A stretch of DNA of 64,000 nucleotides from a virus. Its lineage: Duplodnaviria > Caudoviricetes. The stretch is taken from IMG/VR virus record IMGVR_UViG_3300046167_000798. One strand, given 5' to 3'. Below the pieces are notes generated by a model. It searched no databases. It had not been told where the DNA came from and worked only from the letters and a program-made list of their open reading frames with translations. Positions 24,290 through 29,927 of the stretch are shown piece after piece. Positions within the stretch are counted from its first letter, which is position 1. Each line of letters starts with the position of its first letter. A program made the translations under genes and the position numbers.

Positions 24290-25417
24290 TTACTCGTTTA
24301 TACCAGCACCTTTGGTATCTATTTCCATATTATCAATATCGAGAGTATCTCCTTTATATTGTAAGATTGTTTCTTCACATATCTTTTTATAAATTTGTTC
24401 TCTAAGTTCTTCATTCTCACCCATCAAAGGAATAAAATCTTTTGATTGAAATTTGAATTCTTCACCTGTTTCAGTATCAACATATGCATACCATGCACCA
24501 GCTTGTTTTACTAGTTTATTTTCTTTCATTACAGATAACCATGAACCATAGTTATCAATACCTCTATCGAAGAAAATTTCAAAATCAGCTGCCCTTAGAG
24601 GTGGGCCCATTCTGTTTTTTACAACTTGACAACGTACTTTCATACCAACTGTCTTATCCTTACCATTTACCTTCATCTTGATTTGTCCCATATTCTTTAA
24701 CCTTAATCTTACAGATGCATGGAAAGCCAAAGCTTTTCCACCACTTGTAGTCCAAGGGTCACCGAACATAGCATTCATCTTCTGTCTTAATTGGTTAGTA
24801 AATACCAATGAGATTTTCTGTCTACCAATCATATTGGTAATCTTTCTCATTGCCTTCGAGATAATAATAGCTTTATCAGTAGCATATCCATCTTTCTTGT
24901 AATCTGCCGCTAATTCATTAGTTGTAGAAGCAGCCGCAACTGAATCTACTACTATTGTTACTATCTTATCTTTGGAAGTTTCTCTAACTTTCTCAATGAT
25001 AGTTTCTGTGAAATCAAAGATTTGTTCAACCGAATCAGCTGTAACATAAAGAAGTTTAGAAACGTCAACACCGATTGCTTCTAAAAATTCTCTACTTACT
25101 GCAGTTTCTGTATCAATAAGAACAGCAACACCACCTTGTTTCTGTGTTTCCGCAAGGAGGTGTGCTGATACTAATGATTTTCCTGATTGTTCTAATCCTG
25201 TGATTTCAGTTATTCTACCAACAGGTAAACCACCATAAGGACGATTGGAGACAGCTACATCCAACATTGCACATCCTGTCGATATCCACCCATCTACATT
25301 TGTAGGAGCTTCATCATCATTAAGAAAAAATGCTACTTTGGAATCTTTCGATTGTTTGTTAAGTTCACCCGCCAGAATATCTGCCAAGTCAAGCTCTTTT
25401 GCTTTCTTTTTCGCCAT
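24290..25417 (-). CDS. recA: RecA/UvsX recombinase
   Basis: ISTGCAMLD, GLEQSGKS, VVDSVAA, FTNQLR, SGGKALAFHASVR. Confidence 0.95.
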   Translation of the reverse strand: MAKKKAKELDLADILAGELNKQSKDSKVAFFLNDDEAPTNVDGWISTGCAMLDVAVSNRPYGGLPVGRITEITGLEQSGKSLVSAHLLAETQKQGGVAVLIDTETAVSREFLEAIGVDVSKLLYVTADSVEQIFDFTETIIEKVRETSKDKIVTIVVDSVAAASTTNELAADYKKDGYATDKAIIISKAMRKITNMIGRQKISLVFTNQLRQKMNAMFGDPWTTSGGKALAFHASVRLRLKNMGQIKMKVNGKDKTVGMKVRCQVVKNRMGPPLRAADFEIFFDRGIDNYGSWLSVMKENKLVKQAGAWYAYVDTETGEEFKFQSKDFIPLMGENEELREQIYKKICEETILQYKGDTLDIDNMEIDTKGAGINE

Positions 25418-25428
25418 TAAATTGGTTT

Positions 25429-26232
25429 TTAGTTGTTAAATAAATCATCAAATGCAGCCGCTACATCATCAGTTTTCTTTGCAGATTCTGTTGTAGTTGG
25501 TGCAACTTTTGTTGGTTGAGTTGTAGGTGTACTTTGAGATAAAGTAGACTGAGATACAGTTTCTTCTTTTCCTTCACCACTTGGGTTCAACCATCCCTCT
25601 AATACTGATTTTAATTCATCATAAGATAATTCAGAATATAAATCTGTAATTTCAGTTTGTGATTCAATCCATTTAGTTACCTTTTCAGCATCTTCGCTTA
25701 CTGGTGTAGCTTTTGGTTTAACTCTAATAGTAGTAGTTGGATAAGTAGTTCCAGCTTCTTCTGCTGATTTATACTCTATCGTTAAATCTCTACCACCACT
25801 TGGGTCTGTGATATCTCCATAATCAGGGTCAGCAATGTAACCAAGAATTTCTTGATATACTGTTTTACCGAATCCCCAAAAACGAACTCCTTCACCTTCT
25901 TCGCCTCTTACAACAACAGGTACGAAAGTTCTCAACTTAGGCTCCATAGCCTTTGCTGCTTTCCAATCTTCTTTATCTCCCATTCTTTTTAGTTTATCCG
26001 CAAACTCTACAATAGGGTCTGGTCTACCAAATGATTGTGGTGATAAATAAGTTTTGTTGTTAATGTTATAGTGAAAGTACAATTCGATGAATGGATTATC
26101 TTTTTCGAATTGGTAAGGAACGATTCTCACTTGGTGCTTACCAGGTGTTGGTTTCCATAATGAGTCTGATTTCCTTTGTGTGTTTTGTAGTTTGTTCAGT
26201 CTACCTCTGATTGCGTTAATGTCTAAAGCCAT
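25429..26232 (-). CDS. T4 gp32-like ssDNA-binding protein, no cysteines
   Basis: WKP..VRIVP, FWGFGKTVY, DITDP..GRDL, acidic tail DDLFNN. Lies next to recA. Confidence 0.85.
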   Translation of the reverse strand: MALDINAIRGRLNKLQNTQRKSDSLWKPTPGKHQVRIVPYQFEKDNPFIELYFHYNINNKTYLSPQSFGRPDPIVEFADKLKRMGDKEDWKAAKAMEPKLRTFVPVVVRGEEGEGVRFWGFGKTVYQEILGYIADPDYGDITDPSGGRDLTIEYKSAEEAGTTYPTTTIRVKPKATPVSEDAEKVTKWIESQTEITDLYSELSYDELKSVLEGWLNPSGEGKEETVSQSTLSQSTPTTQPTKVAPTTTESAKKTDDVAAAFDDLFNN

Positions 26233-26267
26233 GATTTTTACCTTTTAGTTTTAATTAATTTATTTTT

Positions 26268-26304
26268 TAAGTTTAAGTTTTGAGTGCTAAACTTATTAAC
26301 ACTC
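26268..26304 (-). ncRNA. Predicted H-type pseudoknot in the SSB mRNA leader
   Basis: S1 GAGUGUU/AGCACUC, L1 AA, S2 UAAGUUU/AAACUUA, L3 AAAACUU, then 35 A/U-rich nt to the ATG. Confidence 0.65.
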
Positions 26305-26312
26305 GGTGTATA

Positions 26313-26320
26313 TATAAATA
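26313..26320 (-). promoter_or_regulatory. TATTTATA late-type promoter motif (SSB leader)
   Basis: Same octamer that precedes the structural genes. Confidence 0.55.
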
Positions 26321-26369
26321 TAAAGAAATCATAAAAAACACCGAATTTTTATAATTACTTATTAACAAT

Positions 26370-26804
26370 TTACTTAGCCCATTTCCCACTTGAAACCAAC
26401 TGAGCAATGATACCATATACTGATAAATCTTGGAAGGTATCTTCACATGATTCACCTATATTATCTTGTTTACCTAATACAACTAATTGTTTTAATCTTT
26501 GAATCTTATCATTCATTCTAAACCAAAGACCTGTAAGAGATACTTTCTTTTCATCTTCAGTTTCTAAATTACTACCAACAGAAATATTATCTGGTCCATA
26601 GTTAGATTGTTTTAAACAAAATAATTCATATTGTGTAAACATAATTCTTTTAAACTCTGCCGTCATTTCAGGCCATTGTTTTTCCATTTCTTCTACAACC
26701 TTTGGGTTATCATATTGTAAAACCTCATCATATTGGGGTTCTACCTTAATTGGATTAAAACTGTGTTTTTTACTTTTAGTACTTAATACTTTTTTTCCTG
26801 CCAT
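26370..26804 (-). CDS. DUF1599 / nucleotide-modification-associated domain protein
   Basis: KQSNYGPDNI, FRMNDKIQRL, DTFQDLSVYGII. Confidence 0.8.
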   Translation of the reverse strand: MAGKKVLSTKSKKHSFNPIKVEPQYDEVLQYDNPKVVEEMEKQWPEMTAEFKRIMFTQYELFCLKQSNYGPDNISVGSNLETEDEKKVSLTGLWFRMNDKIQRLKQLVVLGKQDNIGESCEDTFQDLSVYGIIAQLVSSGKWAK

Positions 26805-26829
26805 TTATTTAAATTTTAATTTTGTTATA

Positions 26830-26860
26830 CAAATATACGAAAGTTTTTTCAAACTTCCAA
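26830..26860 (-). promoter_or_regulatory. Bacteroidota-type early promoter
   Basis: TTG-N20-TATATTTG. Confidence 0.8.
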
Positions 26861-26882
26861 GTCTTTTTTAATTTTTTTTTTA

Positions 26883-27269
26883 TTATATGAATAATTTATA
26901 ATCTTTTTCGTAACTAATAGCTTCAATCTCATATGGGTGAGTTACATAATCATATCCCATATTGTAATATCTTTTAAACCAAGATGGTGATTGTAAGTAG
27001 TGAATGTATTCGTGGATAAGAGTTTGAATAACCATTTTCTTAGATTTCATCTGTGGATAGTAAACTGTGATTTCGTTCATCATTGAACAATACTCAGCGT
27101 GACATTTATCTTCCTCACCTTGAGCACCTTCTTCACCACTATATTTTTCGTAGATGTTTTTGTGAAGTTCAACATATGGAGTACATTCTTGGAATTTAGA
27201 GAATCCATAGTGTTTCTCTATCTTTGGAAACACTTCATCGATTATTTTTAATACTTTATCTTTCAACAT
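26883..27269 (-). CDS. Small zincin metallopeptidase
   Basis: LIHEYIHYLQ (HExxH) plus HPYEIEA. Confidence 0.8.
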   Translation of the reverse strand: MLKDKVLKIIDEVFPKIEKHYGFSKFQECTPYVELHKNIYEKYSGEEGAQGEEDKCHAEYCSMMNEITVYYPQMKSKKMVIQTLIHEYIHYLQSPSWFKRYYNMGYDYVTHPYEIEAISYEKDYKLFI

Positions 27270-27859: not shown

Positions 27860-29912
27860 TTAATTTTCCCCATAAATAGCTACTAAGTTATTCAACTCTT
27901 TTTGTCTATTTTCTCTTTTCTTACCTTGTATATTTGGGTCTGCTAGTTGAACCTTTAATATTTCAATTCTTTTAGTATCTAATTGTTTGTTCATTTCTTT
28001 TCTTGCTTCATCAATCACTTCTTCTTGATTTTTATCATCTTCCAATGAACTACCAAAGTAACCAAATTTCTTAAACTCTTCAATGAGATATTCGTGGTCT
28101 TGTCCTTTACTTCTTCTTTTTGCACCACCCCTACTTCTACCAGCTTGTACATATACAGTTAAAGTTTTATTGAAAGGTTCTTGTTTGAAATCAATATCTT
28201 CCTTATTCTCAGGTAACTCTACTCCCTTTTCTTTCCAAAATGCCTTTACTTTATCATAATACTGTGGGTCTGCTGGAATTCCCTTTGATGGGTCTCCTCC
28301 TTCTAATTCAGTAATTGTTTTGGCATCAGGATGATAAAAATTATGAGCTTTCATCATTGCATTAGTTTCAGTACTATCCGCATTTCTGATACCATATTCG
28401 TTATATGGTGGATTATCTCCTCTACTAACTTTATCAGCATGATGTTCTCTAATTAATTTTTTTCTTAAGGTTTTATACTCATTCTGTAATTTCTTTTCCT
28501 CAGGATTCTCTGCTAACTTTCTTCTAATTGAATTTAATAAATCATTATCTATCAAATCACTCTTGAATTGATTTACAGGACCTGCCATTAAATCCATATT
28601 AGTATCAGGGTCATCATACTTAGCTTGTAATGGTTCTAAATCCTTTACAATATTTTGTTCTCTTTCACTTAGTTCATCTTTTCTCTTCTTCATTATCTCT
28701 TGTAATGAATTTCCATCAGCTGGTTTTTTAGCCTTAAGAGATAATCCTTCGTACTTACCCTGATTCTACAATATCAGATTCTGCAGTTGTAAATGGTAAT
28801 CTATGGTCTGGTTCCATATGACTTAGAGGTAATGGTTTACCTGTTACAGGACTTTTACAATCATTTTTCAAATATAATTTTAGAATCTTTTTTGCTCTTA
28901 TATATCCTGGTGAGTTTTTATCAATACCTGGATACCCATCCTCACCTTTTTTAAGTTTAGTAACTTTCGTTAAGTGTCTTGGTACTGCTCCTCCTGCAGA
29001 GAATTTTTTTAACAATTTACCAAAATCAGATGGTTCTAACTTTTCTTCGAAATAATCCATTGCAGTATCAACTTCATCATCAGTAACATTTCTCTGAATG
29101 ATAGATGGATGTACATATGGTTCTTCATTGAATTCCTCACCTTTTTCAAGTGCCTCTTTTCTTCTTCTATCTTGAACCATTCGTTTTTCAGTAAATTCTT
29201 TCAAATCCTTAACATCTTGTACTGATGGTGAGTTTGAACCTCCACCAGTTTTCAATCTAACTTTATCGTAATTTTCTTCAATAAATTTTAAGTTATCAGA
29301 TAACTTTTCATTTACTTTTATTATCTTTTCAGTACTTCTTTTACTACCAACTTCAAAAGTAGATGTATCTGGTTTTTCTTCAGAATCACTACTTGATTTA
29401 TCTTCTTTAGATTTCTTTACCCTATCTTCAAGTTCTTTAGATTTCTTTGCATAATCACTACCAGGTTTCAATGCACTACCTTGTGTGGGTTGAGTATCAT
29501 CGGTAGTATCATCTGAATTTCCTTTTGGGGAATCAATTTTTTTCTCAGTTCCTTGAGAACCAACTTCTTTATTTATTGCATCTCTTTCAGGTGTACCATC
29601 TTTTGGTAACATTTTTTCTGCAGCTATTCTACCTGGTGAATCTTTTGGTGAAGTTAATAGATTTCCAACAATACCTTCTTTCTCATTACCATTTTTATCT
29701 TTATACTTAACGGTTCTATTAAGAATTGGATTTTTAAATTTTCTTGGGTCTTCAGTAAGAAATTCAAAGATAGTTTGTTTTATATCATACTCACCCCACT
29801 CTGAAAGGATTTCAGACATGATTGATTGATGTTCTTTATTTTCTACATTAGGGATACCTACCCTATATGAGAGTTCTCTTACTAACTTATCTATTACTTT
29901 TTTATAATCCAT
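27860..29912 (-). CDS. Large charged protein with an interrupted HNH-like motif (~683 aa, one inserted G-run base at ~28759)
   Basis: The ORFs join as ESG-KYEGLSLK...EIMKKRKD. Motif CKSPVTG..EPDH...NMDLMAGPVNQFKSD. Confidence 0.65.
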
Positions 29913-29919
29913 ACTATAC

Positions 29920-29927
29920 TATAAATA
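29920..29927 (-). promoter_or_regulatory. TATTTATA late-type promoter motif
   Basis: 7 nt before the ATG, so the mRNA would be almost leaderless. Confidence 0.55.

Follow-up and report, generated by a model that had tools for sequence, protein, structure and literature searches.

The window (the whole 64,000-nt stretch of viral DNA analyzed here) carries on its minus strand, at 25429–26232, a gene for a 267-aa SSB of the gp32 family with an acidic C-terminal tail. The product scores 48.6 bits against the Pfam gp32 model PF08804 (cut-off 26.8; E = 1.3e-12), and BLASTP aligns it to T4 gp32 at 22% identity (E = 4e-4). The sequence-only reading of this DNA had called the protein zinc-less, and we agree: cysteine is absent from all 267 residues and likewise from the relatives checked, and the zinc ligands of T4 gp32, C77, H81, C87, and C90 (PMC535899), fall opposite Q, R, a gap, and V in the alignment. 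By its sequence and its alignment to T4 gp32, the SSB does not contain a T4-type zinc-binding subdomain. A phmmer search against PDB sequences returned no gp32 match up to E = 1, and an AlphaFold2 model built from a 20-row alignment had a mean pLDDT of 36, too low for use. The neighboring gene, a RecA/UvsX-type recombinase at 24290–25417 on the same strand (Pfam RecA, E = 4e-60), begins 11 nt past the SSB stop, and this SSB–recombinase gene order is shared with Flavobacterium phage immuto and Microcystis phage Mel-JY01.

The leader of the SSB gene is read on the minus strand, where every element that had been described for it was found exactly, at its place and in the described order. It is preceded by a promoter-like octamer, TATTTATA (26320–26313; extended form TATATTTATATATACA), and begins with ACACC (26309–26305), a motif that is invariant across all leader types, the hairpin-less one included. 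Stem 1 (S1) follows, with its 5′ arm GAGUGUU at 26304–26298 and its 3′ arm AGCACUC at 26288–26282. The loop between these arms consists of AA (L1, 26297–26296) and, as its 3′ half, UAAGUUU (26295–26289), which is the 5′ arm of a candidate second stem (S2). Beyond S1, L3 (AAAACUU, 26281–26275) is a proximal and variable near-copy of the candidate 3′ arm of S2, AAACUUA (26274–26268), and the latter lies within an invariant block, UUAAACUUAAA. A 35-nt A/U-rich spacer with UAAA and UUAA repeats (26267–26233), which includes the SD AAGG at 26241–26244, then leads to the AUG start codon of the SSB gene (26232–26230).

Drawn as an H-type pseudoknot, the leader has an S1 of 7 bp, an L1 of 2 nt, an S2 of 7 bp set flush on S1 (L2 of 0 nt), an L3 of 7 nt, and 35 nt to the AUG. 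The MFE fold is the plain 9-bp hairpin that had been proposed as a competing structure, in which L1 is paired instead; its energy of −11.1 kcal/mol (z = −2.5) was equalled by 5 of 200 shuffles. Summed helix stacking for the pseudoknot amounts to −20.7 kcal/mol, against −19.2 kcal/mol for the T4 pseudoknot. Given a loop penalty of 8–9 kcal/mol, a rough estimate made with no pseudoknot program, the pseudoknotted leader is about as stable as the 9-bp hairpin, which is thus a genuine rival fold.

The octamer occurs 14 times on the coding strand and 4 times on the opposite strand in the 64-kb window. Most copies stand 15–46 nt ahead of ORF starts, the SSB leader being the longest, and the octamer is kept in every related SSB leader. 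Judged by distance from the octamer, ACACC marks the probable region of transcription start, with the first base of the SSB mRNA probably a little way ahead of this motif. A start so few nucleotides past the octamer would place the S1 helix at the extreme 5′ end of the mRNA. Metatranscriptome contigs mapped on 25200–27000 cover the SSB gene more than the region upstream in two runs, and one contig ends at 26298, although contigs of this kind are unable to show a transcript start. In two metatranscriptome runs there are contigs that connect 26157/26159 with 26825 and skip about 666 nt, comprising the SSB 5′ end, the leader, and a DUF1599-like gene; they most likely come from a divergent or rearranged relative.

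The octamer is flanked by the halves of an inverted repeat, TTCGGTGT (26338–26345) and ACACCGAG (26302–26309), both on the minus strand and separated by a 28-nt spacer. The second half overlaps the leader start, and the two could pair only in read-through transcripts. This repeat is retained in the leaders of types A and E defined below and is missing from several other types, which have small palindromes, such as ACGTTTTTAGAAAAACGT, in its place. Another copy of TATTTATA, at 29912–29927 on the minus strand, ends only 7 nt before the ATG of a gene for a 385-aa protein (28755–29912); if this octamer is the promoter of that gene, the transcript would have little or no leader.

The last 60 nt before the SSB AUG hold six UAAA and four UUAA motifs. 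In UAAA count this tract ranks first among 58 regions upstream of genes, the mean for the window being 0.86 per 60 nt, and it is nearly free of structure (MFE −0.8 kcal/mol). Both values confirm the A/U-rich unstructured spacer that had been claimed for the leader. The unstructured tract measures 35 nt past S2, or about 55 nt from the end of S1. In the T4 gene 32 operator the second part is a stretch without structure, longer than 40 nt, that carries UUAAA/UAAA repeats across the RBS (PMC535899), and a tract of this description covers the RBS here.

Close relatives of the SSB number in the hundreds in IMG/VR marine contigs, the first 80 having 81–99% identity, and further protein and pattern scans extended the set to SSBs of 72–85% identity. 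Common to all related leaders are the octamer, ACACC(G/A), and the A/U-rich tract ahead of the SD. Between ACACC and UAAAAC (26268–26309, minus strand, in the window) stand at least seven alternative cassettes (loci L030, L041, L084, L157, L205, L227, and L273), of which two are pseudoknot-capable, four are plain hairpins whose loops differ, and one is empty. Type A, that of the window, consists of S1 with a loop ending in AGUUU and is followed by AAAACUUAAACUUAAA. Type F, also pseudoknot-capable, has the stem AGUGU/ACACU with ACAGU within its loop and is followed by UAAAAUAAACUGUAA.

The plain hairpins comprise type B (a 6-bp stem with the loop AAGAAAC, then AAAACUAAACUAUAAAAC), type C (stem AGUGG/CCACU, loop AGGAAAG, then UAACAUUCAACC), type D (stem CGUGU/ACACG, loop AGGAUAG), and type D2 (stem CGAGU/ACUCG, loop AGGAAAG), the last two both followed by UAAAUAAAACC. 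Type E has no structure, ACACCGA being fused straight to UAAAAC; the element is wholly missing in this way from 13 of 97 distinct SSB-protein/leader combinations, about one in seven. Locus L273 is an outlier with a tetraloop-closed stem. At L026 and L253 (IMGVR_UViG_3300048551_000108, at a contig end) the hairpin has given way to an inverted second copy of the SSB start and of the leader, apparently an artefact of assembly.

Farther from this group, Microcystis phage Mel-JY01, whose SSB shares 55% amino acid identity, has a 14-bp A-U hairpin after a promoter-like motif with z = 0, and in the leader of Flavobacterium phage immuto (SSB identity 40%) no hairpin was found. As neither leader gives a comparable hairpin signal, the element appears to be confined to the close group.

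The comparison for S1 drew on about 50 distinct leaders of IMG/VR relatives, and six core pairs were scored in an alignment of 27 rows in which every cassette type is represented. All six pairs have compensatory changes on both sides, and with this the stem passed the covariation check that had been suggested for it. Standard pairs make up 98.8% of S1 cells, compared with 82.7% in shuffles, and doubly changed cells number 19, compared with 3.9 in shuffles; the six controls slid by 1–3 columns all fall to 17–52% paired. The first base of the hairpin lies at one fixed distance from ACACC in every hairpin type. The S1 cells include 20 G-U or U-G pairs, which would become A-C mismatches if the other strand were the one that folds, and this indicates that the structure under selection is that of the sense RNA. 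On this comparative evidence S1 is among the better-supported small RNA helices, and we are highly confident that it represents a selected mRNA structure.

Support for S2 comes from complementarity, conservation, and geometry. In type A the loop and the downstream sequence are more complementary than in shuffles, both with free geometry (p = 0.013) and for an 8-bp helix in H-type geometry (p = 0.008). Across 33 distinct type-A leaders, AGUU in the loop is invariant and AGUUU nearly so, and the 5′ half of the loop is variable. Variability within the structured element is greatest in the L1 columns (0.67 bits, none of five invariant), and because their changes are uncompensated, the 9-bp hairpin does not have its two uppermost pairs conserved. 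All seven columns of the S2 3′ arm are invariant, forming the sole fully invariant 7-mer past ACACC; in L3 the first four A residues are invariant and the remainder varies (CUU, CUUU, UUU, AUU, or CAUU). In one leader (L039) S1 is wholly swapped, to GAUUCCU/GGGAAUC, yet UGAGUUU still lies flush on the new 3′ arm.

Type F leaders have potential S2 arms in the same geometry that are unrelated to these in sequence: UUACAGU/ACUGUAA (7 bp) in L205 and ACAGU/ACUGU in L214 and L225, with an L2 of 0 nt and an L3 of 7–8 nt (p = 0.004–0.012). Two such hits in six hairpin types would be unlikely by chance, an argument that we discount because the limits of the H-type geometry were chosen after the data had been seen.

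Covariation was not found in S2 among the 33 distinct type-A leaders, where four pairs never vary, one changes on one side, and two depart by unpaired cells only. In 24 of these 33 variants a 1-nt deletion in the 5′ arm shortens S2 to 5–6 bp. A scan without constraint on the S2 arms recovered 39 variants, all with an identical UUAAACUUAAA and none varying in the 3′ arm; protein- and pattern-based scans of viral contigs and a metagenome scan gave no S2 3′-arm variant and no new type-F variant. The invariance of the arm is not specific evidence for S2, since AAACUUAAA, the motif in which this arm lies, is retained by cassettes B, C, D, and F as well, with loops unable to pair with it. Loop conservation alone is likewise no proof of S2 pairing, as the type-B loop AAGAAAC is invariant while its stem covaries. 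In types B, C, D, and D2 no S2 was detected (p > 0.25 with free geometry, 1–2 bp in H-type geometry). For the claimed H-type pseudoknot speak the covariation of S1 and an S2 complementarity above that of shuffles; against it speak an S2 that is conserved without covariation and sister types that have none. On these comparisons S2 may form, the doubts being slightly the heavier.

On a protein tree of the SSBs (97 rows) the cassette labels require at least 15 changes. One D leader is nested within A leaders and one A leader within D leaders, the empty type E is scattered over several places, and the identical SSB proteins of L206 and L281 are preceded by cassettes B and C. The leaders of these two loci are identical 3′ of the cassette, which puts a recombination breakpoint within the leader. 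Phylogeny and alignment together indicate that leader cassettes are reshuffled by recombination. This cassette polymorphism was an unexpected result, and it shows that 5′-UTR structures can act as exchangeable cassettes in phage populations.

Exchange of this kind bears on recognition. The existence of cassette-less leaders implies that the element is dispensable in some backgrounds, and the occurrence of identical SSBs with different cassettes makes it unlikely that the SSB recognizes a particular loop or pseudoknot, so any binding would have to read generic features. The sequence-only reading had argued that recognition must differ from that of T4; in view of the identical SSBs behind different cassettes, the statement is better recast as any recognition having to be generic.

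The closest counterpart is in T4, where gp32 binds cooperatively along a UUAAA tract from a nucleating pseudoknot of about 28 nt that lies roughly 67 nt ahead of the AUG (PMC535899, PMC3014915). Read in the same manner as the SSB leader, the T4 leader has an S1 of 4 bp, an L1 of 1 nt, an S2 of 7 bp, an L3 of 5 nt, and about 40 nt to the AUG. The T4-like layout that had been claimed for the SSB leader is recognizable: as in the T4/T2/T6 gene 32 operator, a gp32-family SSB gene is preceded by a 5′ leader with a structured element at its 5′ edge (from −76 to −36 in the present leader, at about −67 in T4). Each element allows a drawing with one stem stacked on the other, in which S2 has 7 bp, L2 has 0 nt, L1 is short, and L3 measures 5–7 nt, and an unstructured UAAA/UUAA-rich tract of at least 35 nt then runs across the RBS. 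Unlike T4, however, S1 is 7 bp rather than 4–6 bp, S2 consists of A-U pairs except for one G-C and is only a candidate, and the SSB is without a zinc domain. Similarity in leader sequence is nil, and the fixed feature of T4 is here a dispensable, interchangeable cassette.

Rapid divergence of gene 32 operators has been described before: RB69 keeps a pseudoknot-like element and the unstructured tract with a different footprint, and RB49 is reported to be without a pseudoknot (PMC535899, PMC3014915). The SSB leaders share this tendency, but the RB69 and RB49 differences are between species, whereas pseudoknot-capable, hairpin-only, and empty leaders occur here among phages with SSBs that are 73–100% identical. 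A 2023 survey of IMG/VR described 12 candidate structured RNAs upstream of gp32 genes, predicted by comparative genomics to be cis-regulatory RNAs of marine and freshwater Caudovirales (PMC10690425). A position no more than 25 nt from the gene was a requirement for these GP32 motifs, in contrast to the present hairpin, which ends 49 nt before the AUG. Rfam is without a gene 32 pseudoknot model (PMC10690425), and our Rfam covariance-model scan of the region gave only chance-level snoRNA matches; as the T4 gene 32 leader, run as a control, also matches nothing at the Rfam threshold, this null result is uninformative.

The explanation we tentatively favor is a selected, pseudoknot-capable 5′ hairpin in a gene-32-like leader. 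The 5′ structure is an RNA helix under selection, as S1 covariation shows, and the S1 hairpin would stand at the very 5′ end of the SSB mRNA. The 3′ half of its loop could stack a second helix of 6–8 bp on S1 to give an H-type pseudoknot in the layout of T4/T2 gene 32. Such a structure may cap and stabilize the transcript and mark the 5′ edge of the unstructured UAAA-rich tract of about 50 nt, which surplus SSB would coat cooperatively, hiding the SD and AUG, by analogy with gene 32 of T4 and RB69. What the SSB recognized would be generic, a helix beside an A-rich single strand, and not a loop or pseudoknot. Autoregulation of the SSB through its leader, drawn from the same analogy, is conceivable and is put forward with some reserve. 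Unlikely as a whole is the fuller scenario of a marine Flavobacteria-type jumbo phage whose zinc-less gp32-type SSB autoregulates via a T4-like leader, with the nucleating structure drawn from recombining cassettes and a pseudoknot that arose at least twice (types A and F). If this were true, neither a zinc domain nor a constant RNA sequence would be required for pseudoknot-nucleated SSB autoregulation.

The E. coli ompA leader is an example of a 5′-terminal stabilizing stem-loop, and the SSB leader is like others of that type in its stable hairpin a few nucleotides from the inferred 5′ end, its freely varying stem, and its highly expressed gene. Conserved loop sequences are not expected in a pure stabilizing stem-loop, and they are conserved here. 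It is somewhat unlikely, in our estimate, that S1 is simply a hairpin of this kind, guarding a highly expressed mRNA from 5′-end-dependent decay, with S2 fortuitous or a by-product and no self-regulation by the SSB. Such a hairpin would account for covariation in S1 and none in S2, for the lack of S2 in four of six hairpin types, for cassettes that swap freely even on identical SSBs, and for the 1–5 nt between the hairpin and the inferred start. It would leave unexplained why loops or loop halves (AGUUU, AAGAAAC) stay invariant when their stems covary, why loop and downstream sequence match in H-type geometry in two independent cases, and why the UAAA density ranks first. The viability of the hairpin-less allele E also tells against it. 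A precedent for protection exists in T4 gene 32 mRNA itself: its stability is out of the ordinary, and RNase E trims it at −71, immediately ahead of the structured element (PMC3014915).

The complete proposal of the sequence-only reading is a T4-type pseudoknot serving as the specific nucleation site for translational self-repression by a zinc-less SSB. The shared layout, the S2 complementarity above shuffles, the gp32 family membership of the SSB, and the UAAA-rich tract over the RBS all point in its direction. We consider it improbable nonetheless, because identical or near-identical SSBs have cassettes that are incapable of a pseudoknot or no cassette at all, S2 does not covary, and the zinc domain, which in T4 is reported to be essential for repression (Shamoo 1991, as cited in PMC535899), is absent. 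A two-state switch, in which S1 and a loop/downstream helix exclude each other (AAGUUU with the proximal AAACUU, or S2 with S1 open) and so set access for ribosome binding or RNase, could draw on the use of two S2 bases by the MFE hairpin, on a 6-bp alternative hairpin with the proximal AAACUU (−2.3 kcal/mol), and on the MFE fold of L214, which pairs loop with downstream sequence inside an outer helix. The proximal copy is the variable one, however (AAAUUU, AAAAUU, AACAUU), the alternatives are far weaker than S1, and a flush L2 of 0 nt suits pseudoknot stacking and not switching, all of which makes a switch very unlikely.

Least probable of all is an element that acts at the level of DNA or transcription. 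It might be the operator of a DNA-binding regulator, terminate or attenuate transcription of the gene upstream, or be a hotspot of recombination that has no function as RNA. The inverted repeats TTCGGTGT and ACACCGAG around the promoter and the frequent recombination at the site would fit such an element, but G-U pairs in S1 are meaningless in duplex DNA, and stem sequences change with pairing kept. A DNA cruciform or operator was rejected on account of these G-U pairs. An intrinsic terminator was rejected as well, the hairpin lying downstream of the promoter motif and being followed by CAAAACUU (CAAAAC), with no U-run.

The locus amounts to a natural allelic series, with pseudoknot-capable, hairpin-only, and empty leaders before near-identical zinc-less SSBs. 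This series could separate a 5′ structure that acts as stabilizer from one that acts as nucleation site or as both, the benefit of a pseudoknot from that of a hairpin, and the need for a zinc domain.

Two further observations concern the relatives. The sister cassettes carry invariant purine-rich 7-nt loops (AGGAAAG, AGGAUAG, and AAGAAAC) on covarying stems, at L084:2780–2813, L227:328–361, L041:1429–1462, and L157:856–889. The AGGA in these loops resembles a Shine-Dalgarno core, and it is speculation that the loops contact the ribosome or a protein. The closest cultured SSB, at 55% identity, is that of Mel-JY01 (PP395634.1; L081, 1400–1503), for which the recorded host is cyanobacterial. The motif upstream of that gene, TCGTATATTTGTA, matches TAnnTTTG, the Bacteroidota −7 consensus, and is also present in the IMG/VR relatives.
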